NCBI GenBank assembly: GCA_038251535.1
Contig: JBBSBF010000001.1
Span: 2,232-66,231 of the forward strand
Direction of reading: 5' to 3'
From: Minisyncoccia bacterium
Lineage (GTDB): Bacteria; Patescibacteriota; Minisyncoccia; Phycocordibacterales; UBA9973
Length of the DNA: 64,000 bases
Shown here: positions 11,252 to 51,290 of the stretch, one piece after another
Numbering within the stretch: position 1 is the stretch's first letter
Layout of the letters: each line of letters begins with the position of its first letter
Notes under the pieces: generated by a model
Told to the model about the DNA's origin: nothing
The model's input: the letters and a program-made list of their open reading frames with translations, nothing else
Databases searched by the model: none
Made by a program: the position numbers and the translations under genes

Positions 11252-11671
11252 ATGAAATTATCGGACATCATGATATTTGCAAAAAGACGAAGTCTGAGAA
11301 GAATGGTTCGTCGAAAAAAGGCACCCAAACCCATACCTATCGAGGTTCAGCGTGCCGCTCGAGTGCTCGTTCATCAAAAACTCGCGCAGTTCAACCTGTC
11401 GTATGCTTTTCAGTACCATAGAGTGGCGATACGAAACCAGTCGACTCGATGGGGGAGCTGTTCGAGTAAGGGAAATCTCAATTTTAACTACCGCATCATT
11501 TTTTTACCGCCCGAACTCCAAGACTATCTGATCGTTCACGAGCTTTGCCATCTCAAAGAACTCAATCATGGGAAGAAATTTTGGGAGTTGGTATCACAGA
11601 CGATCCCAGACTACGAACGACGCAAAAAAGCGCTGCACTCGATGGATCGTATGATTGGACACCATGCATAA
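11252..11671 (+). CDS. YgjP/DUF45-family zinc metallohydrolase
   Basis: WGSCSSKGNLNFNYRIIFLP...LIVHELCHLKELNHGKKFWELV (HExxH). Start chosen at MKLSD within the 11105 ORF, because the upstream part overlaps the cupin gene on the other strand. Confidence 0.75.
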   Translation: MKLSDIMIFAKRRSLRRMVRRKKAPKPIPIEVQRAARVLVHQKLAQFNLSYAFQYHRVAIRNQSTRWGSCSSKGNLNFNYRIIFLPPELQDYLIVHELCHLKELNHGKKFWELVSQTIPDYERRKKALHSMDRMIGHHA

Positions 11672-11686
11672 TGCTATACTGTCGCT

Positions 11687-12052
11687 ATGAGTTCAAAACG
11701 AATACTCCTCCTGTGTACGCTACTGGTACTTGTCCTCTATGTAGTAGAGGTACGAAAGGAAAGCAATATTTCAACTGTTATTCCGTCAATTGAAACAACG
11801 ACCAACTATGATGAGGGCGAAACAGTTGAAAAATACATTCGAACGCTCGATGTGACAACCTTGACGGGGGTTAATCCTGTACTGGGTGGGAACATGTATC
11901 TCACAGCGGTCAGAGTGGATACGCTGTCCCATACTGCTGTGATCGAGTACGAAGATGGACACATTGCGGGGAACGCATCGATTTCTTATACCTTTGATTC
12001 GGTGACTGGGGGAGTGACTGTCGTCAAAGTTACCCCGGAGAGTACCCAATAG
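11687..12052 (+). CDS. Hypothetical exported protein (N-terminal signal/TM)
   Basis: MSSKRILLLCTLLVLVLYVV hydrophobic N-terminus; no recognisable domain. Confidence 0.45.
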   Translation: MSSKRILLLCTLLVLVLYVVEVRKESNISTVIPSIETTTNYDEGETVEKYIRTLDVTTLTGVNPVLGGNMYLTAVRVDTLSHTAVIEYEDGHIAGNASISYTFDSVTGGVTVVKVTPESTQ

Positions 12053-12108
12053 TACATTTGGTAGAAACTTGTGTATAATTGAGCTATTAGCAATAAATCG
12101 TAAATTGT

Positions 12109-12471
12109 ATGCAAGTAATATTTTTAATCGGACGAATTCTCCTCGGTGGATACTTTCTCTATAGCGGATACAATCACTTCGCAAACCTCGCAGGGATGAC
12201 TGGCTATGCAAAAATGAAGCGTGTGCCTATGGCAAAGGCATCAGTGATCATCAGTGGTGCCATGCTTGCGCTTGGCGGGTTAGCCATCCTTGCGAACCGA
12301 TTTGCAATCCTCGGGATGCTCCTCCTTGTTCTCTTTTTGATCCCAACGACATTTATGATGCATGCCTTTTGGAAGGAACAGGATCCTGCAGCTCGGATGA
12401 CAGAACGTGTCAGCTTTATGAAAAACATCGCAATCCTCGGTGCACTCCTCCTTCTTGTTTCGATTGGATAA
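12109..12471 (+). CDS. DoxX-family membrane protein
   Basis: RILLGGYFLYSGYNHF...; four TM segments; ~120 aa. Confidence 0.7.
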   Translation: MQVIFLIGRILLGGYFLYSGYNHFANLAGMTGYAKMKRVPMAKASVIISGAMLALGGLAILANRFAILGMLLLVLFLIPTTFMMHAFWKEQDPAARMTERVSFMKNIAILGALLLLVSIG

Positions 12472-12496
12472 ATGATCAAAATAATAGAGAAATAAA

Positions 12497-12519
12497 AAAA
12501 GCCACCTGTGGTGGCTTTC
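12497..12519. terminator. Bidirectional hairpin terminator
   Basis: aaaaaaagccacc-tgt-ggtggctttc between convergent genes. Confidence 0.65.
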
Positions 12520-12529
12520 AAATACTTTT

Positions 12530-12751
12530 TTAACCATGGGGAATGGGATTTCGCATTTCTGTTTTATCACATTTGTGACAAATATGTTTCCGGAAATACA
12601 CCGGCGAGCCATTTCTCTTGGATTTTCTACACGTTGTATCTCTACTAATCATATGCCATTCGTGCTCGCAAAACATTTGAATAATGATGCGGTGGAATAT
12701 AGTTTTATACCCCCGTATGGGATATGAAGCTTGACCTATAGTTACTCCCAT
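12530..12751 (-). CDS. Small Cys/His-rich (zinc-ribbon-like) protein, hypothetical
   Basis: ...CEHEWH...CRKS...CHKCDK...; convergent on the 12497 terminator. Confidence 0.35.
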   Translation of the reverse strand: MGVTIGQASYPIRGYKTIFHRIIIQMFCEHEWHMISRDTTCRKSKRNGSPVYFRKHICHKCDKTEMRNPIPHG

Positions 12752-12996
12752 AATTTGTTAATTTAGTTTTCTTCCATATTACATCTTTCACATTTTTTAT
12801 CAATAACAAAAAAGTCACCAACAGCAGGGGGATTTAGTCCAATTATTTATTTCTTTCTCATCACGAGTAGTGCAAATCCGAAAATCAATCCTAATACTGA
12901 CCAGAAAATTCCGTATTTTTAAATATCCCCTATTGGTCAGACCTGTAGGAGAAGTAGCGAGGGTAGGAATGGTGGGTACGGTGGCCTGGTATACTG

Positions 12997-14688
12997 GTGG
13001 AGATGACTCAATCTCAAGCACTCGATATATTGAAAACAGGGGCAAATGTTTTTTTAACTGGAGAACCCGGGTCTGGCAAGACTCATACGGTCAACGTCTA
13101 TGTGGAGTATCTGCGCGCGCATGGGATCGAACCAGCGATCACTGCGTCGACCGGTATTGCTGCGACACACATTCATGGGCAGACGATTCATTCGTGGAGT
13201 GGTATCGGGATCAACCGTACACTTTCACCGTACGATATCGATCGTATTGCAACCACCGAACACGTCGTCAAACGAATACAAAAAACAAAAGCGCTCATTA
13301 TCGATGAGATCTCAATGATCGATGCTACCACACTTGATATGGTCGATACTATTCTTCGAGCGATCAAGCAAAACGATGAGCCATTTGGTGGTATACAGAT
13401 CGTGATGGTGGGGGATTTTTTTCAACTGCCACCGATCACACAAGTAGGGCAACAACCACACTTTGCTTTTGTAGCCTCAGTGTGGGGTCGGATGAAGCCA
13501 GTCATTTGTTATTTGACCGAACAACATCGCCAACGAGATACTGAGTTTCTCTCCCTTCTCTCTGCAATACGAAAAAATACCTATGGTCCAGAAGATCACC
13601 GTGTTATCGAACGCAAGCTCTATCAACCAACTGACGATGTCATCCATGACTTTACTGCAACACGATTGTTTTCTCACAATAAAAATGTCGACGCGATCAA
13701 CACCGTAGAGCTCAACAAACTACCGACTCTTTCAACGTGTTTTCTGATGCAAAGCAAGGGGAGGGAAACACTTGTCGCGCAATTAAAAAAGGGTTGTCTT
13801 TCTCCCGAAGAACTCGAACTAAAGATCGGTGCAGTGGTCATGTGTACAAAAAACAACCAACAAAAGGGCTATGCAAATGGGACTCTGGGCACGGTCCTTG
13901 GATTTGAGCCGGGAACGAAGTTTCCCATTATCGAAACAAAAGATGGCATACGTATCACGATCGAACCAGCAGAATGGATCATCGAAGAAAACGGTAAAAC
14001 AAAGGCAATGATTACGCAAGTCCCGCTTCGGCTCGCGTGGGCTATTACGATTCACAAAAGTCAGGGAATGAGTCTCGATGCGGCAGTGATGGATCTGCGA
14101 GATGTCTTTGAATACGGACAAGGATACGTTGCACTCTCGCGAGTCCGCTCACTCGACGGGCTACATATTTTGGGTTGGAATAGACAGGCGTTTTTGGTCC
14201 ACCCTCAGATTTTGGAAAAAGATCAGTATTTTATGCGTCAATCCGAATCAGCGGCTGCGATTTTTGGCGATATGTCGCAGATAGAACGAGAAAAGATGCA
14301 GCACAACTTTGTCCTCGCCTCAGGAGGAGTGGTAGATCGTGTTAAGAAGAAATCAACAAAGAAAGTTGCAGGGGATACGTTTCAAACAAGTCTTGCGCTT
14401 GTGTTACAAGGCAGGTCTATCGGAGAGATTGCAAAGGAGCGCAGCTTGGCCCCCGTGACCATCATTGGGCATATAGAAAAACTCGTACAACAACGTAGGT
14501 TGGGCGTTGCCGATATTATCTATCTTATCGATAAAAAAACGTTCAGTGGATTTGAAGATATCAAGGCGACATTTGTAAGTCTGGACACATCTAAACTTAC
14601 TCCGATACGTGAACATTACAATGGTAAGTTTACCTATGAACAATTGCGGTTCGCTCGGATGCTGATAGAGCTCGGTTATCCACACTAA
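12997..14688 (+). CDS. PIF1/RecD-like SF1 ATP-dependent DNA helicase with C-terminal HTH
   Basis: Walker A LTGEPGSGKTH; Walker B LIIDEISMID; GDFFQLPPI; UvrD_C_2-like ITIHKSQGMSLD; C-terminal helix-turn-helix region. Confidence 0.85.
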   Translation: MEMTQSQALDILKTGANVFLTGEPGSGKTHTVNVYVEYLRAHGIEPAITASTGIAATHIHGQTIHSWSGIGINRTLSPYDIDRIATTEHVVKRIQKTKALIIDEISMIDATTLDMVDTILRAIKQNDEPFGGIQIVMVGDFFQLPPITQVGQQPHFAFVASVWGRMKPVICYLTEQHRQRDTEFLSLLSAIRKNTYGPEDHRVIERKLYQPTDDVIHDFTATRLFSHNKNVDAINTVELNKLPTLSTCFLMQSKGRETLVAQLKKGCLSPEELELKIGAVVMCTKNNQQKGYANGTLGTVLGFEPGTKFPIIETKDGIRITIEPAEWIIEENGKTKAMITQVPLRLAWAITIHKSQGMSLDAAVMDLRDVFEYGQGYVALSRVRSLDGLHILGWNRQAFLVHPQILEKDQYFMRQSESAAAIFGDMSQIEREKMQHNFVLASGGVVDRVKKKSTKKVAGDTFQTSLALVLQGRSIGEIAKERSLAPVTIIGHIEKLVQQRRLGVADIIYLIDKKTFSGFEDIKATFVSLDTSKLTPIREHYNGKFTYEQLRFARMLIELGYPH

Positions 14689-14747
14689 TATTTTTATGGG
14701 TACGATTTTGTATTATACTGTAGGTATTATCAGTAAGAAGCATTTTG

Positions 14748-14810
14748 ATGGCAAAAGGAAACAACAGTCAGAAAAAGGAAGCAAAAAAACCGAAGAAGGC
14801 AAAGAAATAA
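14748..14810 (+). CDS. Very small Lys-rich peptide (20 aa), hypothetical
   Basis: MAKGNNSQKKEAKKPKKAKK, followed by its own hairpin terminator at 14841-14869. Confidence 0.25.
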   Translation: MAKGNNSQKKEAKKPKKAKK

Positions 14811-14840
14811 TTTGCCCGTTTCGACAAACCGATATTAAAG

Positions 14841-14869
14841 AAAGACCGTAACGAGCGGTCTTTCTTTTT
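14841..14869 (+). terminator. Rho-independent terminator
   Basis: aaagaccg-taacgag-cggtctttctttttg. Confidence 0.6.
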
Positions 14870-14924
14870 GCGTAATATATGGTAGAGTAATTTCAAACAT
14901 TCACAATTTAAAAAGGAGGAAAAA

Positions 14925-15599
14925 ATGAGTGAACTGACTACGCTCACTAAAGAAGATTACATATTCGCAGATGAGTTGCTTAAGCAAATAGGATATTCAA
15001 TTATCAAGAAGAAAGACAAGAGTCAAGATTTTTTCAGACTAAAACTTGAAGCGCCACGTCGCATTACAGGAAGCGAAATTGGTTTCTATTATTCCAACAA
15101 GGAATACACGGCAAAATTTTGGACATCATTTTTATTTGAGGAAGAGAAATTTCGCGATAAAGGAAAAGATGCATTTTGGCCCATCATTACGCAAGGTGAT
15201 GCGTTAGTATATAGTGCTAAACCAATATATCGTAACGATAGAGAAGCATTACTAAAAGCTCTACGGTATGCGTGGATCAATAAATGGAAAATAGATAATA
15301 TTCCACTGTGTCCATATTGTAATGCTCGAATGATTATCTTTCGAAAGAAAGACACACGATGTTATATGTATGCGTGTAAAAAAATCGAAAGTCACCCTAA
15401 TGGTAAATGGCGGTTTAGAAGTTGGGATTATGGACTTAAAGAAAATGCACAAGCGTTTGTACAAATCAGACGTGATGCGACTGTCAAGTATAAGCAGCGT
15501 ATGAAAGCGCTGGGTAAAAATCCTATTCCTGCAGCAGTACTACGAAAAAGATGGAAGATTGGAAACAATAGTAATTTTATCGAGAATCGTTTTAGGTAA
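14925..15599 (+). CDS. Hypothetical protein with C-terminal CxxC...CxxC zinc-ribbon
   Basis: CPYCNARMIIFRKKDTRCYMYACKK; SD-like aaaggagg upstream; terminator hairpin aagccttgtttgaacagggctttttt at 15605-15630. Confidence 0.5.
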   Translation: MSELTTLTKEDYIFADELLKQIGYSIIKKKDKSQDFFRLKLEAPRRITGSEIGFYYSNKEYTAKFWTSFLFEEEKFRDKGKDAFWPIITQGDALVYSAKPIYRNDREALLKALRYAWINKWKIDNIPLCPYCNARMIIFRKKDTRCYMYACKKIESHPNGKWRFRSWDYGLKENAQAFVQIRRDATVKYKQRMKALGKNPIPAAVLRKRWKIGNNSNFIENRFR

Positions 15600-15657
15600 T
15601 TTCTAAGCCTTGTTTGAACAGGGCTTTTTTTATGTACAATTTGCTATACTAAACCAT

Positions 15658-17562
15658 ATGACCGTTCCGTATGATCCCGAACACATCACGTATTTTGCTG
15701 AAACTGATGCACGCAATCAGCGGATTAAATTTGGCATCAAAAGTCGTGATCGTACACGCCACATGTACGTCATCGGTAAAAGTGGCGTAGGGAAGTCGAC
15801 ACTTTTAGAAAACATGGCGATCCAAGACATCCAGCACGGAGAAGGTGTTGCAGTCCTGGATCCTCACGGAAGCTTTGCTGAAAAGATGCTCGAGTATATC
15901 CCCGAACACCGCATCAAAGACGTCGTGTATTTTGCTCCGTTTGATACGGACAACCCGATATCGTTCAACGTACTCGAAGACGTGGGTGCAGATCGTCGAC
16001 ACCTCGTCGTTTCGGGACTGATGAGTACGTTTAAAAAGATTTGGGTTGATGCATGGAGTGCGCGTATGGAGTACATCCTGACCAACACACTCCTCGCACT
16101 TCTCGAGTATCCAGGGGCAACACTTCTCGGAGTGAACCGCATGCTTTCTGAAAAAGGATTCCGGAAAAAAGTGGTAGAGAACATCACCGATGCGGCGGTC
16201 AAGGCGTTTTGGACTGAAGAATTTGCAAACTATACGGAACGAATGGCAGCAGAGGCAGTGCCCGCAATCCAAAACAAGATTGGGCAGTTCACCGCAAATC
16301 CACTCGTGCGCAACATCATCGGCCAATCCAAATCAACCTTTGATCTACGCAAGGTAATGGATGAACAAAAGATACTGATCATCAACCTCTCCAAAGGACG
16401 CATCGGAGATACCAACACGAGTCTTCTCGGTTCGATGATCATTACCAAGATATATCTTGCAGCCATGAGTCGTGCAGAGCTTTCACAGAGTCGTATGGGA
16501 GGACTACCCAACTTTTATTTCTACGTTGATGAATTTCAATCGTTTGCAAACGAGACGTTTGCCGATATCCTTGCAGAAGCTCGGAAATACAAACTTGCGC
16601 TTATCATTGCGCATCAGTATGTAGCACAAATGGAGGAAAAGGTGCGTGATGCAGTATTTGGAAACGTTGGTACGACGGTGTCGTTTCGCGTGGGACCACT
16701 CGATGCCGAGCTCTTGGAAAAAGTCTTTGCACCACAGTTTACGCAAAACGACATCATCAACCTCGGGATGGCTGAGATTTATCTTTCACTCATGATCAAC
16801 GACATCGGGTCACCACCGTTTTCTGCTCGGACTCTCGCACCCTTGGCGCGTCCTGCTATAACATTTCGCAATGACGCAATCGAATCATCGCGTAGTCAGT
16901 ACGCATTTCCAAAAGAAACAGTAGAAAAAAACATCGCAGAATGGTTTGCCGCAGGTAGCGAGCCGGTGGAGGATAAAACACAAAAGAAAACTCGTTTTGT
17001 AGAGGGTGATCGATCAGTGCAAGCATTTTCTCCGCGACCTTCGTACCCAGAGATACGGACCGCTTCAACAGGTCCTGGACAGACAAAGACCCCGCACACA
17101 TTTCCACCTAAAAAAGTAACACCAGCAACCCATAAACCATTTGCCAAAGCATTGATAAAGCCCGTAGTCTCGCAGGTATCCACAGATTCTCCGGCTCCGC
17201 AATCTGATGTAGTACAAAAAGAAGATAACCCACAGCCGTCTTTGACACTAAAGCATCTCCTGGATTCTCTCGATACTACCGCTCCACCGATAGTAATGAA
17301 AGATAAACCAGAATCCCCATTTGTCGGTGAGAAGCCACTTCGCGAAAGTGTTTCGCCAGTCAAACACGCCGAACGCGGTCCTACAGAGAAAAATCGCGAC
17401 CTTCTCAAAATGGCGCTACAAAAGGCAACTCAGCAACAACCATTGCGGACAGAAAAAACAGAAACTGAAGCAGTGAAAACGGTGTCTGCTGACAGCACAA
17501 CATTAACGGCAAACCACACGAGCGAAGTTTCTTCCGATGCCCTAAGGCAACTATTGGAATAA
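15658..17562 (+). CDS. P-loop ATPase of the VirD4/TraG/HerA-FtsK (DUF87-like) superfamily with a long disordered P/T/S-rich C-terminal tail
   Basis: Walker A VIGKSGVGKSTLLEN; Walker B-like FYFYVDEFQSF; LALIIAHQYVAQ motif; no N-terminal TM; last ~200 aa low-complexity. Confidence 0.6.
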   Translation: MTVPYDPEHITYFAETDARNQRIKFGIKSRDRTRHMYVIGKSGVGKSTLLENMAIQDIQHGEGVAVLDPHGSFAEKMLEYIPEHRIKDVVYFAPFDTDNPISFNVLEDVGADRRHLVVSGLMSTFKKIWVDAWSARMEYILTNTLLALLEYPGATLLGVNRMLSEKGFRKKVVENITDAAVKAFWTEEFANYTERMAAEAVPAIQNKIGQFTANPLVRNIIGQSKSTFDLRKVMDEQKILIINLSKGRIGDTNTSLLGSMIITKIYLAAMSRAELSQSRMGGLPNFYFYVDEFQSFANETFADILAEARKYKLALIIAHQYVAQMEEKVRDAVFGNVGTTVSFRVGPLDAELLEKVFAPQFTQNDIINLGMAEIYLSLMINDIGSPPFSARTLAPLARPAITFRNDAIESSRSQYAFPKETVEKNIAEWFAAGSEPVEDKTQKKTRFVEGDRSVQAFSPRPSYPEIRTASTGPGQTKTPHTFPPKKVTPATHKPFAKALIKPVVSQVSTDSPAPQSDVVQKEDNPQPSLTLKHLLDSLDTTAPPIVMKDKPESPFVGEKPLRESVSPVKHAERGPTEKNRDLLKMALQKATQQQPLRTEKTETEAVKTVSADSTTLTANHTSEVSSDALRQLLE

Positions 17563-17563
17563 T

Positions 17564-18871
17564 ATGAAGTACAGTATCCTCATTCTAATCTTTTGTTGGT
17601 TATTGAGTGCATCGTATGCGAATGCTCAAATACACATCACCGAGATAGCATGGATGGGTACTGCCAACAGTCAGTATTCAGAATGGATAGAGCTATACAA
17701 TGACGCGACAACTTCGGTAAATCTTGCAGGTTGGAAGCTGTACGAATCAAGCAGTACGCTCATCATCGCTCTTTCCAAAACGATTGCAGCGCAAGGGTAT
17801 TTGTTAGTTGAACGAACGACGGCAAGTGCTCCCGATGCAGTACCAGGAGTTGATGATGAGGCAGGTTCTTTTGGTGGTGGAGGACTTGCCAATACTGGTG
17901 AGAAACTCATTCTCAAAGATGCAAATGGGAGTACAGTCGAATCACTGGACTTTAGTAGTGGGTGGCCAGCCGGAGATGCAACAACAAAACAAACGATGCA
18001 GTGGACGGGGAGTGATTGGATTACTGCCGACCCAACCCCAAAGGCACCGACAGCTACCTCACAAGGCACCACTGAGGATACTGTACCGACCGTCGAAGAT
18101 TCCGATCCCATCCCAAAAGTATCTCCCAACAAGCCGTACATTGCATTTGAAATACCACCTGTAGTGTATAGCGGTACCGCACATGAGTACAACGCTCATC
18201 CAGTTTATGAATACAACTATCAGTTTGATACAGGTAACATGTACTGGAACATGGGGGACGCGACGATGTATCGACAAAGCGCAATCGCGCCCGTCGTGCA
18301 CACGTATCAGTTTCCTGGAACGTACACGATCTCGTACTCGTTCGCAGATCCTGAAAACCGCCAACTTCCACTCACTGGCACCAAAAAAATAACCGTCGTA
18401 GCTCCCACGTTATCACTCACCACGCTCAATCACAAAGCACTCGTCATACAAAACAATGCACCACAGCCGATCGATCTAACGGGATGGAAACTCAATACGC
18501 CTGATAAGGTCATAGCGATACCTGACCAAACGATCATCGCCGAAGGAGCAACTATCGCATTACCATTTTCTATACTTTCGATTACGAGCGATACGTATTT
18601 TTCTATCACTGATCCTTCAGGTGTACTCGTGGCAACTACAAAGCCTGGGCAGGTACCAGTTGTAACATCGCGATCTTCAGCGCCTACCACTGTCCTGGCT
18701 GACGAATCAACCCTTACTCCTTCGGCTGAAATTACAGAAAATCCGACAACACCTTCACCAGAAAAAGCTCCAACAAACAAGCGCACCAGGACATATATTC
18801 TTGGTGCGCTTGGTATATTCGTTATAGCCTTGTCGTTACTCCTTGAGCGTTTTATGGCTCGACAGGAGTAG
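17564..18871 (+). CDS. Secreted lamin-tail-domain (LTD) protein with C-terminal membrane anchor
   Basis: Signal peptide; LTD signature ITEIAWMGTANSQYSEWIELYN...GWKL repeated (second LTD near residue 290); C-terminal TM ILGALGIFVIALSLLL. Confidence 0.65.
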   Translation: MKYSILILIFCWLLSASYANAQIHITEIAWMGTANSQYSEWIELYNDATTSVNLAGWKLYESSSTLIIALSKTIAAQGYLLVERTTASAPDAVPGVDDEAGSFGGGGLANTGEKLILKDANGSTVESLDFSSGWPAGDATTKQTMQWTGSDWITADPTPKAPTATSQGTTEDTVPTVEDSDPIPKVSPNKPYIAFEIPPVVYSGTAHEYNAHPVYEYNYQFDTGNMYWNMGDATMYRQSAIAPVVHTYQFPGTYTISYSFADPENRQLPLTGTKKITVVAPTLSLTTLNHKALVIQNNAPQPIDLTGWKLNTPDKVIAIPDQTIIAEGATIALPFSILSITSDTYFSITDPSGVLVATTKPGQVPVVTSRSSAPTTVLADESTLTPSAEITENPTTPSPEKAPTNKRTRTYILGALGIFVIALSLLLERFMARQE

Positions 18872-19604
18872 CAGTTGTAGTCTTGGTTTCTGGGGAAACA
18901 ATGGGGGTAATACTATCGGGTATTGAAGTAGCTTCAACTTCCGTCGTGATTGCATCAACTTCTTTTGAGATGATTATTACTTCTTGGTCAGAAACTTTTT
19001 GAATGGTTGCGTCAACTGCGATGAGTGCGGCGTCGTTGTTTGATCCGTCACTGTTTTCGGTATTTTCGATGACGAGTTTATTTGCTTTGAGCGTTTCCTC
19101 GAGTGATGTAGTTGCACTGAGTGCTGCATTAGGAGCAACGGCACTGAGGGTATTGAGGTCAACTGAAAGGTTTTTGATGTGTGTATCGAGTGCTTTTTGT
19201 ACTGTTGCTTGCTTTGCCTTGGTTAAGGTCTTTGACTCTGCCAATGTTTTTATTTCGTTGACTCGATTTTCTACACGCTTTGCTCCGTAGGCAACTTTTT
19301 CTTGTGGAGTGTTCTGAAAGAAACCTTTTACTTCTTCGTTTACATTGAGTTTGAATGCGTAGAGCGGATCTCCCGGGAGGGCATTGTCAGCAACGGCAGA
19401 GATAGTCCCACCGATAAATATGAAAAACAAAAAACTCGAAAGTGCAATGCGCAAGCCGTGGTAGATGCCGCGTTGCAACAATGAATGACGATATACACTT
19501 TCTTGCTGCATGATGTGCGCAAGGTGCGCGCGTATATGACCACGCTCACTTTCGGAAAGCTTGATATCTTTTACTTGCACAAGTTGTTCAAAATTATATT
19601 TCAT
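18852..19604 (-). CDS. Putative membrane anti-sigma factor
   Basis: Immediately downstream of, and overlapping, the ECF sigma gene; single TM LSSFLFFIFIGGTIS; extracytoplasmic helical domain. Confidence 0.5.
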   Translation of the reverse strand: MKYNFEQLVQVKDIKLSESERGHIRAHLAHIMQQESVYRHSLLQRGIYHGLRIALSSFLFFIFIGGTISAVADNALPGDPLYAFKLNVNEEVKGFFQNTPQEKVAYGAKRVENRVNEIKTLAESKTLTKAKQATVQKALDTHIKNLSVDLNTLSAVAPNAALSATTSLEETLKANKLVIENTENSDGSNNDAALIAVDATIQKVSDQEVIIISKEVDAITTEVEATSIPDSITPIVSPETKTTTATPVEP

Positions 19605-43916: not shown

Positions 43917-44417
43917 ATGGTATTGTTTCAAAAAATATTATTTATGAGACATGAAGATATAACAGCTATTGTAGGTGGAGCTGTAGAAACAAATTTACAA
44001 CTTACAAACCACGCCTGCTCATTAAAAGAAATTTTGAAAGAAAAAGAACAGAAACTTGATTTATCACATCATAACGTGAAAAGTCAGATTAGGTTTGTAA
44101 TAAACAATTATTACGACCATAATAATGATTACTTTTCTGATTTTTTAAATCAACAAGTGCCCGCAGGGCATGAAAAAGATTATGGATTGGAAATACAACA
44201 TGTTGCGGATCGGTTCGGAGCAAGCAATCTACTGTATCTGACTTATGCTATCAAGCACACATTACTGACTGGTACGCGTACAGAAGTTGTACTCAAAGAT
44301 AAGCAGACTCTTGAAAAATTGGAAGATTTTTTCTCAGGAATTGAAAAAGCGCTTGATCTGTTTATTCAGCGAATTGCAGTTGATAATACATATGTGGTTA
44401 TAGATAAGAAAAAGTAA
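43917..44417 (+). CDS. Hypothetical protein (166 aa)
   Basis: Intact ORF; terminator at 44425. Confidence 0.4.
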   Translation: MVLFQKILFMRHEDITAIVGGAVETNLQLTNHACSLKEILKEKEQKLDLSHHNVKSQIRFVINNYYDHNNDYFSDFLNQQVPAGHEKDYGLEIQHVADRFGASNLLYLTYAIKHTLLTGTRTEVVLKDKQTLEKLEDFFSGIEKALDLFIQRIAVDNTYVVIDKKK

Positions 44418-44474: not shown

Positions 44475-45533
44475 ATGAAAGATGCGATGCTAAACCAGGT
44501 GTTTTACCGAAAATATCGGCCAGATGATTGGAAAAAAGTCATCGGGCAAGAACACATCGTATCAGTACTCGAAGCATCCATACGAAACAACACCTTTTCT
44601 CACGCGTACCTGTTCACGGGTAGCCGTGGTACGGGCAAAACGTCAGTTGCCCGTATCTTTGCGGCTTCTCTTGGTACTAACCCCGAAGACATCAATGAGA
44701 TCGATGCCGCATCAAACCGGAGTATCGACGACATCCGAGAGTTGCGCCAAGCAGTACGCGTGTTGCCGTTTTCATCAGTGTTCAAGGTTTACATTATCGA
44801 CGAGGTACACATGTTGACCAAGGATGCATTCAATGCACTTTTGAAGACGCTCGAAGAGCCACCGGCGCATGTGATATTTATCCTCGCGACAACAGAGCAG
44901 GGCAAAGTACCTGAGACGATACTCTCGCGATGTCAGGTGTTTTCGTTCAGAAAACCAACAGAAAAAATACTTGCACAAACGCTGCGTGATGTCGCCACGA
45001 AAGAATCATTTACCATCGACGCAGAGTCGGCGTCCTTGATCGCTTTTCTTTCTGAAGGATCGTTTCGCGATGCGCTCGGCATGCTGCAAAAGATTTGCTC
45101 AGGTTCCCCGACTCGAGTGATCACGAGAGAGGTCGTAGAGATGATCACTGGCGCCCCGACGCTCTCGACCATCACCGAGCTCTACCGCGCACTGATCGTA
45201 CGAGATATCGATCTCGCGTACCAGACACTCGCTCGTGCACAGGCACATCACACTGATATGATGCTGTTGGCGAGCCTGTTTCTCGATGTTATGCGTGCAT
45301 CTCTCATGTATCGGTATGCGCCGTCGATGCGAGAGACATTTGAAGATGAGCATTCGGAGGTGTATGTCGAGCTTGTCAAAGCGGGTGCGATCGAAGGTAT
45401 GGAGGCGATATCATCTCGCGGCGTTATCGCGATGATTACGGCGATTGAGCGCATCGCGTACGCAGCAGTCCCGGCGTTACCGCTCGAACTCGCGATGATC
45501 GAGATGATGGGGATTGAATCTTCGTTGAAATAG
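44475..45533 (+). CDS. dnaX: DNA polymerase III subunit gamma/tau, short form
   Basis: Walker A FTGSRGTGKTSVARIFA; Walker B YIIDEVHML; sensor SRCQVF; 352 aa. Confidence 0.85.
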   Translation: MKDAMLNQVFYRKYRPDDWKKVIGQEHIVSVLEASIRNNTFSHAYLFTGSRGTGKTSVARIFAASLGTNPEDINEIDAASNRSIDDIRELRQAVRVLPFSSVFKVYIIDEVHMLTKDAFNALLKTLEEPPAHVIFILATTEQGKVPETILSRCQVFSFRKPTEKILAQTLRDVATKESFTIDAESASLIAFLSEGSFRDALGMLQKICSGSPTRVITREVVEMITGAPTLSTITELYRALIVRDIDLAYQTLARAQAHHTDMMLLASLFLDVMRASLMYRYAPSMRETFEDEHSEVYVELVKAGAIEGMEAISSRGVIAMITAIERIAYAAVPALPLELAMIEMMGIESSLK

Positions 45534-45565
45534 CATACATTTTGTGTTATAAAATATCAGCGTCT

Positions 45566-45760
45566 CGGGGAATCGTTCTCATGCTCCCGTTTTCTTAAAC
45601 CGAAGGTTTGTAGAAAACGCAGTGCAGAGAGAGCGAAGCTCGAATCGTAGTACGACGCGAGTCCTACTATTGGGGAATCGTCTGGTGGTGGGAATACAAA
45701 TGAATCTGCTTTCATTTGTATCCGGTTCCGAAGGAATGCAGTGCTTTTTGTAAACAAAGC
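45566..45760 (+). repeat. Cluster of partial tRNA-Gln copies (5' acceptor/D-arm and T-arm fragments) with an 11-bp perfect hairpin
   Basis: ggggaatcgt appears at 45567 and 45672 as well as at the true tRNA start 45762; gcgagtcctac at 45655 mimics the T-arm 3' half; hairpin atacaaatgaa-tctgct-ttcatttgtat. Confidence 0.5.
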
Positions 45761-45831
45761 TGGGGAATCGTCTAATGGTAGGACAACGGATTTTGGTTCC
45801 GTTTATCTAGGTTCGAGTCCTAGTTCCCCAG
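45761..45831 (+). tRNA. tRNA-Gln (anticodon TTG)
   Basis: Acceptor tggggaa/ttcccca; anticodon arm acgga-ttTTGgt-tccgt; T-arm ctaggTTCGAGTcctag; discriminator G; 71 nt. Confidence 0.85.
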
Positions 45832-45959
45832 CTTTGAGTGCAAATCACTGCAAGGGGATTTTGGTTCCGTTTACTATAGGTCCCTATTTTTAATGAACGA
45901 AGTGATTATAAAAATAGTGGATCTCGACCAGCGGAAGAGGCGAGTCCTAGTTCCCCAGC
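45832..45959 (+). repeat. tRNA-3'-end-associated element, Gln-locus copy A1
   Basis: Pseudo anticodon arm ggggattttggttccgttta, conserved core gaacgaagtgattataaaaatagtggatctcgaccagcggaagaggc, then cgagtcctagttccccagc (exact copy of the tRNA-Gln 3' 17 nt). Near-identical to 47182-47307. Confidence 0.7.
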
Positions 45960-46009
45960 AAACAAAAAACTGTATTTAATAAATACAGTTTTAAAATAGT
46001 TTTTTAATT

Positions 46010-46354
46010 TTAAGCAATGCCTAAAATCTTCCGCTCTTCCGGTGAAAGCTTTTTAAGTGCAGCTTCTTTAATTTTCAAAATTTCTTTTTCATCATCAAAG
46101 TGCAAGGCTGTTCTTGATTCATTCATAGTAAATCCATTTTTACCGTCTGAAAGTACAAATACTTCATCAACCTTTACTCTGTTAGAGTCATTTTGTTGCC
46201 CAGCAAATGCTTTAGCAACATCAGGGTTTTTGAAGAAACCAAGAGAAACAGGATTTAGTCCGTCTACGTCTACTCGGTAGACTTCGCTCATGAGAACAAT
46301 TTTATAAGAACTTAAATCTTGTCCAATGAGTTTCTCAAGAAATTTGTTTATCAT
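46010..46354 (-). CDS. Hypothetical protein (114 aa), cassette ORF 1
   Basis: Intact ORF with minus-strand terminator aaaaaactgtattta-ataaatacagtttt at 45962-45995. Confidence 0.45.
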   Translation of the reverse strand: MINKFLEKLIGQDLSSYKIVLMSEVYRVDVDGLNPVSLGFFKNPDVAKAFAGQQNDSNRVKVDEVFVLSDGKNGFTMNESRTALHFDDEKEILKIKEAALKKLSPEERKILGIA

Positions 46355-46400
46355 TGTATGGTAGTTTTAATTTAAATGGATATTATAATATTTCCTTTAT

Positions 46401-46442
46401 TTGTCAATCAATATGGTTCTAACATCGTCCCAGACCCCTAGC
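46401..46442 (+). repeat. Cassette boundary repeat R1
   Basis: ttgtcaatcaatatggttctaacatcgtcccagacccctagc. Confidence 0.65.
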
Positions 46443-46480
46443 AAATAAAAAACTGCATCAATTGTTGATGCAGTTTAAAG

Positions 46481-47101
46481 CTATCTATTCCAGAAATAGG
46501 CGAACAGGAAAATAATCACACCGCCACAGATAACAATCCATAAACGTAAGAGGAAGACCCTGATAGGAGTGTCGTGTACTTCAATAGGTGAACTAAACCA
46601 ACCAAAAGGACTTATAAAGCGTTTAATAATATTTTTCTGTATTGCTGAATAGATGATTACCCATTCTGCAACAAAAACATCTTTTCCGTTTTGGTTCATT
46701 CCTTTGATCTGCCAGATACATTCTGCGTGACATTTTGTCTCTGGAAGTTTTTTCTGTAAAAGTGTATAGGTATACATTATCTTATCTCCCATATTTACAG
46801 GGCGTAGGTAACGAATATTGTTATAACCTTTTGCAATAATTTCTGTAGGTTCGGCAAACTTGAGAATTTTAAAAATAAAACTTTCAGCTTGTGCCAGTGT
46901 GCTAATACCATGTCTAGCTAATCCGCCAAGTTTTGATTTGAAGTTTGTGGTCGTAAAGGGGTTAATATGAATGGGATTTAAATCGCCAGTCAAAAATCCA
47001 AACAGGAGTGTCCACAAGTATTTCGCCTTTTTCTTTGGGGAAGTATAGGTGTAGTTTTCTGGAATAGTAGCTATGTCTGAGTAAGATTTAAGGTACAACA
47101 T
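46481..47101 (-). CDS. Hypothetical protein with C-terminal TM (206 aa), cassette ORF 2
   Basis: Intact ORF; minus-strand terminator ctgcatcaa-ttg-ttgatgcag at 46453-46475. Confidence 0.45.
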   Translation of the reverse strand: MLYLKSYSDIATIPENYTYTSPKKKAKYLWTLLFGFLTGDLNPIHINPFTTTNFKSKLGGLARHGISTLAQAESFIFKILKFAEPTEIIAKGYNNIRYLRPVNMGDKIMYTYTLLQKKLPETKCHAECIWQIKGMNQNGKDVFVAEWVIIYSAIQKNIIKRFISPFGWFSSPIEVHDTPIRVFLLRLWIVICGGVIIFLFAYFWNR

Positions 47102-47140
47102 GCTATATGATTTTTCTGTATATTACATACTATTTATAAT

Positions 47141-47181
47141 TTGTCAATAATTCGGTTCGAATATCGTCCCAGGCCCTCAGC
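47141..47181 (+). repeat. Cassette boundary repeat R2 (tRNA-T-arm-like)
   Basis: ttgtcaataattcggttcgaatatcgtcccaggccctcagc; followed directly by element copy A2, exactly as the tRNA-Gln 3' end is followed by A1. Confidence 0.65.
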
Positions 47182-47307
47182 TTTGAGTGCAAATCACTGC
47201 AAGGGGATTTTGGTTCCGTTTACTATAGGTCCCAATTTTAAGAAAGGGAGTGATTATAAAAATAGTGGATCTCGACCAACGGAAGAGGCGAGTCCTAGTT
47301 CCCCAAC
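47182..47307 (+). repeat. tRNA-3'-end-associated element, copy A2
   Basis: ~95% identical to 45832-45959; ends gagtcctagttccccaac. Confidence 0.7.
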
Positions 47308-47364
47308 AAGTAAAAATAAGCAATAAAAAAAGAAGCAATTTTAATGCTTCTTAATAACTTTGTA

Positions 47365-47640
47365 CTAAAACCCATCTAATAAAAGTCTTGTGAACGCTAT
47401 CGTCCACATGACGATCAATCCGTATATATCTGCAGGAATTGTTTTCTGTGCCCCAGAATGTATGCCGTAGCCGATTCGACCAATGAAGATCGTACCCGAT
47501 AGAAAGGCAAAGAGGAAACTGGAGTGTATATGATGAGTAGTTATTCCAAAATATAATTCGTACCCGCCACCAATAGTTACATAAATAAATACAATGATTT
47601 TTGTTATGTTGCCCCATTTAGCAGCTTTTAGACTATTCAT
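47365..47640 (-). CDS. Small membrane protein (91 aa), cassette ORF 3
   Basis: Three predicted TM helices; preferred over the overlapping W/C-rich 47351..47617 frame; terminator hairpin at ~47318-47348. Confidence 0.4.
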   Translation of the reverse strand: MNSLKAAKWGNITKIIVFIYVTIGGGYELYFGITTHHIHSSFLFAFLSGTIFIGRIGYGIHSGAQKTIPADIYGLIVMWTIAFTRLLLDGF

Positions 47641-47685
47641 TTGTAAACGTTTTAATTAATTGTATTATAGCATTATTATTCTATA

Positions 47686-47729
47686 TTGTCAATGTAATAC
47701 AAGTTCTAACATCGTCCCACAGCCTCAGC
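47686..47729 (+). repeat. Cassette boundary repeat R3
   Basis: ttgtcaatgtaatacaagttctaacatcgtcccacagcctcagc. Confidence 0.65.
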
Positions 47730-47776
47730 TCGTAAAATGGAAATAAAAAAGTCTCTCAAAAAAGAGAGACTCTGGT

Positions 47777-48178
47777 TTAATTATTTCCCGCATTTTTCTT
47801 TGAAAGTAAATCAAGCTGCATGTCGATATCTATATCTTCCAATTTTGTATTTGGAAGATCGATTTGTAGACCAATACTTACAGAAAATTTATGCCCTTCA
47901 TTATTTAGGATACCTTGCAATTTTTCTTGAAGGAAAAGGTATTCACCCATAGGGGGTAAAATAATTTCTATTTCTTCAACAATTATTCCTTTGCGTACAC
48001 AGCTTCCTGCAAGAAACCCTATAATATGAAGTAGCTCTTTTTCAAACCCACGCATGTCTTCATTTTTGATAATAACAGGAATAGAAGCGGGTAAAGATTT
48101 TGTATAGGGAAGTATAATTTTAAAGAACTGGTTAGGTTGACGAACACAATACACAGTTTCAAAAGAAGTATTTATCAT
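47777..48178 (-). CDS. Hypothetical protein (133 aa), cassette ORF 4
   Basis: Intact ORF; minus-strand terminator agtctctc-aaaaaa-gagagact at 47748-47771. Confidence 0.45.
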   Translation of the reverse strand: MINTSFETVYCVRQPNQFFKIILPYTKSLPASIPVIIKNEDMRGFEKELLHIIGFLAGSCVRKGIIVEEIEIILPPMGEYLFLQEKLQGILNNEGHKFSVSIGLQIDLPNTKLEDIDIDMQLDLLSKKNAGNN

Positions 48179-48217
48179 CTTTTATTGTTTTTAGTATAAT
48201 GCTATATATTAACAATA

Positions 48218-48259
48218 TTGTCAATGATTTTAGTTCCAATATCGTCCCACAGCGCCAGC
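48218..48259 (+). repeat. Cassette boundary repeat R4
   Basis: ttgtcaatgattttagttccaatatcgtcccacagcgccagc. Confidence 0.65.
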
Positions 48260-48296
48260 AAACACAAAGGAATCGAACTTTTAGTATAATTAAGGC

Positions 48297-48845
48297 ATGT
48301 CAATAAAAATTACATATTTTGTTCATGGGACTACGACTGATAATGAGAACAATATTTCTTCAGGATGGAAAGATGTCCCACTTTCTGATCTCGGAATTAA
48401 GCAATCAATAGAACTAAAGGAACAAACGAAATATCAGAAATTTGATATAGTATTTTGCTCTGATTTAAGGCGCGCAGTTGATTCAGCAAAACTATCTTGG
48501 GAAGGCATGTATGAGATTATTCCTGATGCACGACTACGAGAATGTAACTACGGAAGCTTGAATGGTGCATCATCAGACATAGTTGAACCAATGCAGGAGG
48601 ACGAATGTATTGTGAATAAATTTCCAGAAGGTGAAAGTTATGAAGACGTCAAGATTAGAATTACAGACTTCCTCAAATTTCTAAAAGCTAACTATGATGG
48701 CAAACATATTGCAATAGTTGCTCACAAGGCTCCACAACTAGCTTTGGACGTTTTGATCAAAGGTAAGATATGGAAACAAGCGCTCGCCGAAGATTGGCGT
48801 AAAACTAGGTCTTGGAAACCCGGCTGGGAATATCAGGTTAACTAA
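48297..48845 (+). CDS. Histidine phosphatase superfamily (phosphoglycerate-mutase-like) protein, cassette ORF 5
   Basis: ITYFVHGTTTDNENN (RHG-type catalytic His in the hGtT context)...GWKDVPLSDLGIKQS...; 182 aa. Confidence 0.65.
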   Translation: MSIKITYFVHGTTTDNENNISSGWKDVPLSDLGIKQSIELKEQTKYQKFDIVFCSDLRRAVDSAKLSWEGMYEIIPDARLRECNYGSLNGASSDIVEPMQEDECIVNKFPEGESYEDVKIRITDFLKFLKANYDGKHIAIVAHKAPQLALDVLIKGKIWKQALAEDWRKTRSWKPGWEYQVN

Positions 48846-48848
48846 TCA

Positions 48849-48876
48849 AAGTTCTAACAACGTCCCACAGCGCCAG
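48849..48876 (+). repeat. Cassette boundary repeat R5
   Basis: agttctaacaacgtcccacagcgccagc. Confidence 0.6.
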
Positions 48877-48912
48877 CAAGTAAGTTTCAACATAATTTGA
48901 TATAATCATTTC

Positions 48913-49491
48913 ATGAATGAAGAAATGAAAAGTGGTCCGAGCCCTGAAGAAAAACAAAGATTAGAAAAGATTGCACAAGAAAAGGAAGAAAGTGAATGGT
49001 TACAAGATTACTTATCGAGACAACCTCAAGAGGAAGTGACTACTCCAGAAGAAGCTGCTGAGCTCGTGGCACGTTTTGAAAAATTGACATTGGCCTTTGA
49101 TGCAGCCCATTCTCTTGAGGCATTGCTATCAATAGAAGAAATTTCTTCTGACCTTGCGGAGTTGTACCTCAATGCCCCCATACTCGACAATCCATTACGG
49201 ATAATTGCGGATATAAAAACTTTAGAAAAGCACAATCCTACACACGTACCTATCTATAAAGCAAAGATTGAGAGGCTTCAGTCTTTGGTGTTGAACGACG
49301 AAGAGAAAAGAATATATAACTTGCGAATGGCTGCGCGTAAAGATTATGATTATATGAATATGATATTGGGATTTATTAAAAAATGTTCTTCTTTACCCAG
49401 TGATCAAGTTGAAGCACTTGCAAAACGAAGTAAGACTTACTCAAACGCTATTGGAATACTCAGAAACAATAAAATTGTTCACGATCTTTGA
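48913..49491 (+). CDS. Hypothetical protein (192 aa), cassette ORF 6
   Basis: Intact ORF between R5 and R6. Confidence 0.45.
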   Translation: MNEEMKSGPSPEEKQRLEKIAQEKEESEWLQDYLSRQPQEEVTTPEEAAELVARFEKLTLAFDAAHSLEALLSIEEISSDLAELYLNAPILDNPLRIIADIKTLEKHNPTHVPIYKAKIERLQSLVLNDEEKRIYNLRMAARKDYDYMNMILGFIKKCSSLPSDQVEALAKRSKTYSNAIGILRNNKIVHDL

Positions 49492-49505
49492 TTTTGGCGC
49501 AAATA

Positions 49506-49533
49506 GGTTCCAACATCGTCCCACAGCGCCAGC
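49506..49533 (+). repeat. Cassette boundary repeat R6
   Basis: ggttccaacatcgtcccacagcgccagc. Confidence 0.6.
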
Positions 49534-49846
49534 AAAATAGTTATAAAAAAACCACCCGAAGGCAGTTTAAAATAAGTGTCCAAGTAAGAACAGACTAGGA
49601 CCGTTAAAGGTACGGCCGACGTTCTCGAGAATGATCTTGCTTTGTATTTCGAGTCAGTCATATCAAATGCAGTCTGTATACTTAGACACTTATTAGGTAA
49701 TCAATTCTTCATTCAGCTCTATCTTCTGGGAAATGATAAGGATGTCCGGTCTTGTACTTCAAGATCCTTTGCAGAAGCGGGTGCAGAGATGACAGAAAAC
49801 GTAATTCAATTTGAATGTAGCATAGCTCTTAAAAAAGTTCAAACAT

Positions 49847-49863
49847 CAACCTAGACCTTCAGC
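49847..49863 (+). repeat. Cassette boundary repeat R7 (degenerate)
   Basis: gttcaaacatcaacctagaccttcagc; followed by AAATAAAAAG and a minus-strand terminator, as for R1. Confidence 0.4.
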
Positions 49864-49901
49864 AAATAAAAAGAGTGGCTGTTAGCCACTCTGCAAGTAT
49901 A

Positions 49902-50243
49902 TTATTTATTGCAATATTTTTTTGCTGCGGTATGTAAAACTTTAGGAATATTATTCAGAGCAAGAATCGATTTCGTTTGATATACATACGAAAGTTTCAA
50001 GGATTGAAAATTTTTAACAAAATATTGTTCCACTGATTCTATCGAATCAGTTTCTACTTTTTCATTTCTTGCACATTTACAGATGAACTGAATGAAATCA
50101 CTTTCACACTCAGCTATTTTGATATGAGGTACATTTCTGAGGGGAACAGTTTCTATTTTAGAATTTTCTCTCCGCCTTGTGAATAATACAATTGCAATTA
50201 TTATTGCAACAAAAAGCACTGATAAAATAAATATTAATGTCAT
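49902..50243 (-). CDS. Hypothetical protein with N-terminal TM (113 aa), cassette ORF 7
   Basis: Intact ORF; minus-strand terminator agagtggct-gtt-agccactct at 49872-49892. Confidence 0.4.
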   Translation of the reverse strand: MTLIFILSVLFVAIIIAIVLFTRRRENSKIETVPLRNVPHIKIAECESDFIQFICKCARNEKVETDSIESVEQYFVKNFQSLKLSYVYQTKSILALNNIPKVLHTAAKKYCNK

Positions 50244-50284
50244 ATCTATATATTTTATTCTACTATACTCAATTTAATTTATAT

Positions 50285-50309
50285 GTCAACATCAACCCAA
50301 ACAGCTAGC
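50285..50309 (+). repeat. Cassette boundary repeat R8 (weak)
   Basis: gtcaacatcaacccaaacagctagc. Confidence 0.25.
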
Positions 50310-50344
50310 GAACACTTTTCGGTCAGATTTGATACAATGAAATT

Positions 50345-50554
50345 ATGCAAAAAATAGCAACACGGATATTTATCTACGCATCTATCGTTTTTGGAATTAT
50401 CGGTATGTTGATTGTGGTGACTGCTTCTGGACCAGATATGCCGGATTCAACTGCAACCAAGGTATTGATCCGGCTCTTGTTCGCTACGGTCTTTGTGATC
50501 CTGCCTTCGTTTGCTCTAAGTCTGGCCAGTAAGTACCTAAACGATAAATCATAA
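50345..50554 (+). CDS. Small two-TM membrane protein (69 aa), cassette ORF 8
   Basis: Hydrophobic ORF after R8. Confidence 0.35.
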   Translation: MQKIATRIFIYASIVFGIIGMLIVVTASGPDMPDSTATKVLIRLLFATVFVILPSFALSLASKYLNDKS

Positions 50555-50579
50555 GTACACCACATCCTTAGTTTGTAAA

Positions 50580-51290
50580 TTGGAAATAAAAAAAGCACCT
50601 ACGGGAAAACAAATGAAACTGGTAACGTACAAATTTTTAGAAAACATCATCAACGTTTTTCGCGGGCGTACTATCCTTTGGCACATCTTATTTTGGGGAG
50701 TCAGCTTTGTGTTAGTGAGCAGCGGATTTGACTGGTGGTACTTTGAGCACACTCGTGGAGCGACGGTCCAAGCGATATTGTTCCCACCGGTATTTCTCGG
50801 AATGCTTGTTCCGTTTGGTATGTTCTTCGTGCTCATCACCTGTGGAATGGTGCGAAAAAGTACATCTCTCATACACACTGCCTTTGCCACTGCTCAAGCG
50901 GGCATCCTCGGCTTTGGTATTTCTTCACTCTACAAAGTGTTCACTGGTCGCTCAGGACCACCTGGATTTAGGTCAATGGTGAGTACACTATCCGACACGA
51001 GTCATGGGTTTAAGTTTGGATTTTACCGAGGTGGGGCCTTTCAAGGCTGGCCTTCGTCGCATACTACGGTGGCATTTGCTATGTCAGCCGCTCTTGTTGC
51101 GCTCTATCCCGGCAACGACACAAAGAGCAAGGTCATTCGTTTTGTCGCCATGCTCTATGCGCTCTATATCGGCATCGGAGTCTCAGTCAACATTCATTGG
51201 TTTTCTGACTTTGTCGCCGGAGCTATCTTGGGGACACTCATCGGGCTCGTCGTCGGCAAAGCTTTTTACAACCGATTAAAAAGGCAATAA
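50580..51290 (+). CDS. PAP2-family (type 2 phosphatidic acid phosphatase-like) membrane phosphatase
   Basis: Multi-TM; PAP2 motif elements R(S)GPPGFRS, PSSHT, S...H...D (SVNIHWFSD). Confidence 0.75.
   Translation: MEIKKAPTGKQMKLVTYKFLENIINVFRGRTILWHILFWGVSFVLVSSGFDWWYFEHTRGATVQAILFPPVFLGMLVPFGMFFVLITCGMVRKSTSLIHTAFATAQAGILGFGISSLYKVFTGRSGPPGFRSMVSTLSDTSHGFKFGFYRGGAFQGWPSSHTTVAFAMSAALVALYPGNDTKSKVIRFVAMLYALYIGIGVSVNIHWFSDFVAGAILGTLIGLVVGKAFYNRLKRQ

Follow-up and report, generated by a model that had tools for sequence, protein, structure and literature searches.

How did a run of small genes come to stand directly behind a tRNA gene in a Minisyncoccia bacterium? We analysed a window of 64,000 nt from this organism (GenBank assembly GCA_038251535.1, contig JBBSBF010000001.1, positions 2,232 to 66,231 of the forward strand; coordinates below count from the first nucleotide of the window). 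It contains a low-GC island, at 45,833-50,572, between a tRNA-Gln gene and a PAP2 gene. The small genes of the island are separated by copies of a 27-nt repeat, hereafter R (GTTCNAAYATCGTCCCA-N3-C-N2-CAGC), which lie in a single orientation. R is conserved as primary sequence across phyla, the units it delimits are replaced between relatives, and elements that encode large serine recombinases (LSRs) end in the same sites. In our view R is very probably a recombination site that marks serial insertions. We also favour, with less assurance, an array of tandem mini integrative cassettes at the 3' end of tRNA-Gln, built by a clade of LSRs that use tRNA ends.

A search of the window with the pattern GTTCNAAYATCGTCCCANNNCNNCAGC (at most 3 mismatches) retrieved R at 46416, 47155, 47703, 48233, 48851, 49507 and 49837. 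These seven matches, against 0.01 expected by chance, are all on the + strand, none lies elsewhere in the 64 kb, and they confirm the copies listed in a preliminary description of the sequence. A degenerate R (50283-50309) and a remnant (50560-50572) continue the series to the edge of the island. The eight small open reading frames (ORFs) that had been described between tRNA-Gln and PAP2 are all present, on both strands. The GC content is 29-40% in the island (mostly 31-38%) versus about 44-53% in its flanks, which comprise dnaX (44475-45533) and tRNA-Gln(UUG) on the left, and the PAP2 gene (50613-51290) and a META-domain gene on the right. The island and its start are composed as follows.

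45761-45832, + strand: tRNA-Gln(UUG) (ARAGORN; Rfam tRNA, 63 bits)
45811-45832, + strand: T site, the last 22 nt of tRNA-Gln (GTTCGAGTCCTAGTTCCCCAGC), start of the array and putative attB-type arm (from the T and R logos)
45833-45960, + strand: element A, copy 1, non-coding, 128 nt, directly after the CAGC of the tRNA
45961-46442, + strand: cassette 1, with a terminator, a 114-aa ORF (46010-46354, minus strand), its own promoter and R1 (46416-46442)
46443-47181, + strand: cassette 2, with a 206-aa MaoC-like protein (46481-47101, minus strand) and R2 (47155-47181)
47182-47308, + strand: element A, copy 2, directly after the CAGC of R2
47309-47729, + strand: cassette 3, with a 91-aa membrane protein (47365-47640, minus strand) and R3 (47703-47729)
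47730-48259, + strand: cassette 4, with a 133-aa ORF (47777-48178, minus strand) and R4 (48233-48259)
48260-48877, + strand: cassette 5, with a histidine phosphatase (48297-48845, plus strand) and R5 (48851-48877)
48878-49533, + strand: cassette 6, with a 192-aa ORF (48913-49491, plus strand) and R6 (49507-49533)
49534-49863, + strand: unit 7, with a 16-nt inverted repeat, no convincing ORF and a degenerate R7 (49837-49863)
49864-50309, + strand: cassette 8, with a 113-aa ORF (49902-50243, minus strand) and a degenerate R8 (50283-50309)
50310-50572, + strand: cassette 9, with a 69-aa membrane protein (50345-50554, plus strand) and an R remnant (50560-50572), the right edge of the island before the PAP2 gene

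The repeats thus delimit single-ORF units, as the preliminary description had stated, except at unit 7. The inverted repeat of this unit has arms at 49571-49586 and 49679-49694 that are 94% complementary, and the stretch of about 300 nt at 49534-49836 has no Rfam match. Only two island ORFs match Pfam, the MaoC-like domain and the histidine phosphatase; the former had been counted among five hypotheticals. A hairpin terminator had been assigned to every ORF. We found them on the minus-strand genes only, which also have their own TTGACA/TATAAT promoters. Just upstream of dnaX, a second low-GC patch (about 32-35%, 43917-44417) encodes a 166-aa ORF without Pfam family, and relatives have a smaller, different ORF in its place. 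In an independent Logan assembly of the same sample (SRR19962010; our loci L156 and L157), the sequence breaks 77 nt past dnaX and again within cassette 5, which repeats or population heterogeneity could cause.

The nearest relatives have a dnaX 79-80% identical to that of the window, the same upstream gene order and the same tRNA. Two of them (L073 and L074) have the META gene beyond the island in common with the window as well. Their locus carries four minus-strand cassettes that differ from those of the window, and R closes each of them. The genes at the tRNA-Gln locus are again others in L071. In L075 the same hotspot is occupied by a defence island of 8 kb (11388-19577), which encodes an LSR, two ThsB-TIR proteins, T5orf172, two methylases and an Alw26I-type restriction enzyme, and which has no R. 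None of the window cassette proteins was found in these four relatives. Around dnaX and tRNA-Gln the flanks are therefore conserved and the cassettes entirely different; the locus does not have identical gene content across relatives.

Some cassettes do recur elsewhere, and these reveal the boundaries of the unit. L015 and L028 share a cassette with 86% nucleotide identity, and the homology runs from just past the upstream ...CAGC to the CAGC of the cassette's own R. The upstream site is R in L015 and, in L028, a bare copy of the tRNA-Gln 3' end (T0, see below). The ORF and R of window cassette 5 recur in the array of L037 with about 71% nucleotide identity, behind a degenerate R. There are about 4 such homologous pairs among 90 cassettes. 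The cargo consists of small enzymes (serine hydrolases, peptidase S51, SDR, HAD, NUDIX and GNAT proteins, diacylglycerol kinase, amidase) and of unknowns; known defence genes contribute little to it. Together, the turnover and the shared cassettes bounded at ...CAGC support the earlier suggestion that the repeats delimit separately acquired cassettes at a hypervariable tRNA-Gln hotspot.

R is not a peculiarity of this genome. The exact pattern GTTCNAAYAWCGTCCCANNNCNNYAGC matched 70 loci in contigs representing one genome per species, against about 2 by chance according to our own estimate. Nearly all are from Patescibacteria: Paceibacterota, Moranii-, Nealson-, Kaiser-, Doudna-, Ames-, Jorgensen- and Adlerbacteria, as well as metagenome-assembled genomes labelled Saccharibacteria. 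A profile built from the pattern matches raised the total to about 158 copies, with up to 8 per array and nearly all copies within a locus in the same orientation. The conserved block is sharply bounded (..aAG, then GTTCCAACATCGTCCCAgAcCcCCAGC, then Aa) between unconserved flanks, and the R variants are lineage-specific. The copies are spaced by a median of about 600 nt, and 60 of the 87 segments between them contain exactly one ORF of at least 60 aa. Most cassette ORFs (71%) are co-oriented with R, often with R right behind the stop codon, and 29% are on the opposite strand. We found no match to the exact pattern in viral contigs (IMG/VR). A phage origin was discarded, since R is absent from IMG/VR, element A was not found either and the island has no similarity to GenBank phages.

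The link with the tRNA is equally recurrent. Of the 25 tRNA genes in loci with R, 20 are tRNA-Gln, almost always upstream of R and on the same strand. Arrays without a tRNA open instead with T0, a bare 22-nt copy of the tRNA-Gln 3' end (GTTCGATACCTAGTCTGCCAGC). T0 lies directly behind the stop codons of conserved genes, for example alaS (L015, L064, L065) and ychF (L028, L031, L033); its position is kept in related genomes, and each T0 heads an R array. One metagenome-assembled genome, H51-bin099_1, has at least five such T0-headed arrays. Only T0 and element A carry true copies of the tRNA end. R itself is expanded by 5 nt relative to the local tRNA-Gln end and has several substitutions, and the comparison supports the earlier view of it as a mimic of that end. 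We also considered R as a native tRNA 3' end displaced by crossover in mid-site. This was rejected on two grounds: in the window, L034 and L081, the right half of R does not resemble the acceptor stem of the adjacent tRNA, and the tRNAs are intact.

Could R be a signal rather than a site? It might act in transcription, 3'-end formation or RNA processing, or else be a homology handle by which cassettes are shuffled after DNA uptake, comparable to the promoter/stem-loop cassettes of T4-type phages. In the window and in L073, R sits 6-8 nt upstream of the -35 box of minus-strand promoters; elsewhere it is mostly directly behind the stop codon of a same-strand ORF, and the natural-transformation protein DprA is encoded nearby. 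The preliminary description had even included the promoter element in the repeat: its "TTGTCAAT" is the reverse complement of TTGACA, the -35 hexamer of the minus-strand genes, and occurs near only 8 of the 158 R copies in related loci. The orientation of R, however, is constant whatever the strand of the gene, R is absent from the rest of the window, and it forms the far end of LSR elements in versions specific to tRNA-Ser and tRNA-Tyr. Its absence from the window outside the island led us to reject a genome-wide promoter or terminator signal, the alternative under which the proposal of mobility had been expected to fail. An Rfam scan of 44-52 kb matched the tRNA alone, so that R belongs to no Rfam family and is not a known RNA. 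A length of 27 bp is, besides, marginal for RecA-dependent exchange. We regard both the handle and the signal as improbable.

The preliminary description likened the array to an integron, and in its architecture the likeness stands: single-ORF cassettes have their site at the 3' end, a fixed site heads the array, the cargo is very diverse (about 4 homologous pairs per 90 cassettes) and the R variants are lineage-specific. In a true integron-like platform, a distant tyrosine recombinase, IntI- or Xer-like, would recombine the folded single strand of R with the tRNA end. The DNA folds of six R copies and their flanks (three on both strands) do not bear this out. They gave z-scores of -1.9 to +0.6, no better than shuffled controls, with no shared helix, which excludes the attC-like hairpin that the first reading had proposed looking for. 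R is instead conserved as primary sequence and is non-palindromic, without dyad symmetry. No tyrosine recombinase was found near the arrays either: a phmmer search with E. coli XerD, at the sensitivity of a single-sequence query, gave no match at E ≤ 1, either in the window or among 75 related loci, and no integrase family is among the 25 most frequent of the 86 Pfam families of window proteins. Without dyad symmetry or an Xer-like gene, R was also dismissed as a dif/Xer site. Finally, 29% of the ORFs are on the opposite strand and several have their own promoters, at odds with promoterless co-oriented cassettes. Hence, a tyrosine recombinase acting on folded R seems to us a poor candidate.

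The evidence points instead to LSRs (with Resolvase, Recombinase and Zn_ribbon domains), with R as an attP-type arm. The 3' ends of LSR genes abut tRNA-Gln in L034, L058, L078 and L081, and an R located 3-7 kb away closes those islands (5.3-5.6 kb from the LSR and tRNA-Gln in L034 and L058). Scanning metagenomes with an alignment of these LSRs retrieved 80 relatives, about 40 of which abut a convergent tRNA. Nine of these tRNAs are for Gln, and further ones for Ser, Tyr, Asn, Ala, Asp, Val, Thr, Met, Arg, His, Phe and Glu. In this clade (L076-L155), the LSR genes are convergent with the 3' ends of many tRNA genes, often within 15-260 nt; tRNA genes are usually seen as targets of tyrosine integrases. 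The closest LSR relatives have R-like far ends consisting of the same 17-mer and a tRNA-specific 10-mer, as listed here by adjacent tRNA.

tRNA-Gln (L078, L081): far-end site is R or an R-like variant
tRNA-Ser (L077): far-end site is GTTCCAAGTTCGTCCCACCCTCTCCGC = GTTCCAAGTTCGTCCCA+CCCTCTCCGC, in two copies that enclose an LSR-less cassette
tRNA-Tyr (L082, L083): far-end site is GTTCC[CT]AAATC[AG]TACCA+GGCTCCCCAC (also written GTTCC[CT]AAATC[AG]TACCAGGCTCCCCAC)

L077 thus shows an LSR element followed by an LSR-less cassette, and the smallest autonomous element, in L083, consists of the LSR, one ORF and R. In L034, L058 and L007, the LSR frame stays open, without a stop, across the tRNA-Gln or R that adjoins it on the opposite strand, which places the att junction inside the 3' end of the open frame.

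The geometry of the sites agrees with a serine recombinase. Aligning R and T from the right, at CAGC, brings out a common inner part (TCC.Ag....CCAGC) and an outer GGTTC motif. In R (n = 119) the distance of this motif from CAGC exceeds that in T (n = 38) by 5 bp, and the versions at tRNA-Ser and tRNA-Tyr show this offset as well. In LSR sites, the motif of the zinc-ribbon domain occupies positions 16-24 of the attP half-site and is 5 bp nearer the centre in attB (PMC3783163). The match between the two offsets leads us to assign the B arm to T and the P arm to R. Applied to R and T, the rule puts the centre of the site on or beside the shared CCAGC, in agreement with the cassette boundaries and with the junctions of element A, where identity between T-A1 and R2-A2 resumes right after CAGC.

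We therefore propose the following mechanism, which is conditional on LSRs recombining R with T. The last ~22 nt of the tRNA (T: GGTTCGAnnCC...CCAGC) would provide the left arm of an attB-type site, and the 27-nt R (GGTTCCAACATCGTCCCA...CCAGC) the left arm of an attP-type site on each incoming element. Recombination would be conservative and site-specific, with strand exchange probably at or next to the shared CCAGC. Integration would leave the tRNA intact on the left and deposit the R of the element on the far side, giving the order tRNA, element, R and old flank. The regenerated T could then accept the next element and older units would be pushed outwards. Most units are single genes without recombinase and would be mobilised in trans, in the way of SCC elements that lack ccr, by the LSRs of autonomous relatives made of LSR, cargo and R.

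Several observations weigh against this proposal. Neither an LSR gene nor a remnant of one was found in the 64-kb window, which, with the searches for a tyrosine recombinase, supports the initial remark that it lacks a recombinase; moreover, an LSR lies within 8 kb in only about 4 of the 70 R loci. In canonical LSR sites, two quasi-symmetric half-sites can be recognised on either side of a central dinucleotide; in R and T, the sequence to the right of CAGC(AA) carries no information content. Canonical LSRs do not, to our knowledge, reuse attL, and repeated integration would thus need the right half-site to matter little. The mechanism does not account for the bare copies of T just past the stop codon of genes such as alaS and ychF. 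R-like sites occur directly beside an LSR without a tRNA in L007, L089 and L115. The quality of R shows only a weak and non-significant trend of decay with distance from T (p ~ 0.1), and the idea of an age gradient along the arrays was not sustained. Lastly, we saw neither circular intermediates nor strain-level presence/absence polymorphisms.

In another explanation the units are scars: full-size LSR or prophage-type elements that decayed and lost the recombinase by deletion, with the small cassettes never mobile themselves. Autonomous elements with the same ends do exist (L034, L058, L078, L081, L083), and the distal R copies of the window are degenerate. Yet, the left boundary of a cassette falls exactly after the CAGC of the preceding site, LSR gene fragments are missing, 60 of 87 units are neat single-gene ones, and one unit occurs behind different upstream sites. 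Repeated deletions ending precisely at the crossover point are not to be expected, and we consider scars an unlikely origin, if somewhat less so than a folded or a signalling R. On balance, serial integration by LSRs that use tRNA ends is the explanation we retain.

The surroundings of the tRNA may bear traces of a more complex history. The two copies of element A (45833-45960 and 47182-47308) are 93-94% identical, and the element carries a copy of the anticodon arm of tRNA-Gln and a T-type right end (CGAGTCCTAGTTCCCCAGC in copy 1). R2 is indeed followed by the second copy just as the tRNA 3' end is followed by the first, as noted at the outset. The duplication after T and R2 would be the expected trace of a composite circle, A-c1-c2, integrating at the junction of T and A. 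A second resemblance involves the start of cassette 4: the segment 47717-47750 (R3 and the beginning of the cassette) is 85% identical over 34 nt to 50560-50593 (the last R remnant and the chromosomal flank), and 21 of these nucleotides fall beyond R. This hints that composite circles with a copy of the native flank integrated here, as for element A. The trailer of tRNA-Gln is part of element A and is complementary to the leader past the acceptor stem (45747-45767 and 45824-45844, 21-nt arms, 86%). Between dnaX and the tRNA (45560-45760) there are about 170 extra nt, the relative L073 having only 60 nt there. This gap contains two partial 5' copies of tRNA-Gln (45567; 45671-45693, 87% identical to the start of the tRNA) and a T-loop-like GCGAGTCCTA at 45657. 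Earlier rearrangements may have left this extra DNA as debris, or it may derive from a tRNA-Gln paralogue that has decayed. In Patescibacteria, group I introns of tRNAs occupy the anticodon loop (PMC13011429), a position that explains neither R nor element A, and were discarded as the source of either.

How does the array compare with known systems? The closest working analogue appears to be a composite island of the staphylococcal chromosome cassette (SCC) type rather than an integron. SCCmec and its relatives use the LSRs CcrAB or CcrC and target the 3' end of rlmH. Both systems show serial integration at the 3' end of an intact conserved gene, tandem composite arrays with repeats in the same orientation, and elements without recombinase, presumably mobilised in trans, beside autonomous ones; an LSR is the enzyme there and the one we propose here. 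The target differs, being here the tRNA-Gln 3' end or its 22-nt copy instead of rlmH, and so do the units, which are mostly single genes of 0.3-1 kb delimited by a 27-nt attP-type arm conserved across the superphylum. This comparison concerns the architecture. With integrons the array has in common the fixed head site, one ORF per cassette with the site at its 3' end, lineage-specific site variants and a diverse cargo, mostly of unknowns or small enzymes. It differs in having no attC hairpin, no tyrosine recombinase that we could find, no common promoter logic and genes in both orientations; R is conserved in sequence, attC in structure.

Serial integration anchored at a tRNA is also known from tycheposons and Islander-type islands in tRNA genes. 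In the tycheposons of Prochlorococcus, new elements integrate at the tRNA and push older ones inward, leaving degenerate elements and partial tRNAs scattered; most are 2-10 kb long with tyrosine integrases, and a minority use an LSR (bioRxiv 10.1101/2020.12.28.424599). The delimiters there are true partial tRNAs, whereas R has a 5-nt expansion relative to the tRNA end, and most units here lack any recombinase. The sites of phage serine integrases (A118/LI, Bxb1, phiC31) share with ours outer and inner left-arm motifs, the outer one lying 5 bp further out in the attP-type site (PMC3783163). In our arrays, in contrast, right half-sites cannot be recognised, the site appears to be used again once regenerated, and the outer motif coincides with the universal T-loop of tRNAs. 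In the literature that we searched on the motif, on cassettes of the candidate phyla radiation and on LSR-tRNA systems, we found no description of such an arrangement, in line with the initial impression that it is not a described system. What appears to be new is the single-gene scale of the units, an attP-type delimiter conserved in sequence across a superphylum, a clade of LSRs reading the T-loop, and the stand-alone landing pads.

The genomes of Patescibacteria are tiny, and gene acquisition in them is little understood. A cassette system at tRNA-Gln that is conserved, defined by its sequence and present in many lineages would give gene flow in the group a concrete mechanism, and one that can be searched for. 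More tentatively, and with the odds somewhat against it, the arrays may reflect an integron-like gene capture across the whole phylum, in which LSRs read the T-loop and acceptor strand and insert one-arm, single-gene cassettes at tRNA-Gln or at 22-nt landing pads behind housekeeping genes, as a main route of gene gain in these reduced genomes. The biology of serine integrases would gain the T-loop as a distal recognition motif, a single informative arm and the reuse of a regenerated site. The rule of a conserved 17-mer followed by a tRNA-specific 10-mer suggests that these integrases are naturally re-targetable, a property of interest in genome engineering. For the epibiotic hosts themselves, the cargo (about 90 small proteins and enzymes, most of them unrelated to one another) marks accessory functions that are under selection.

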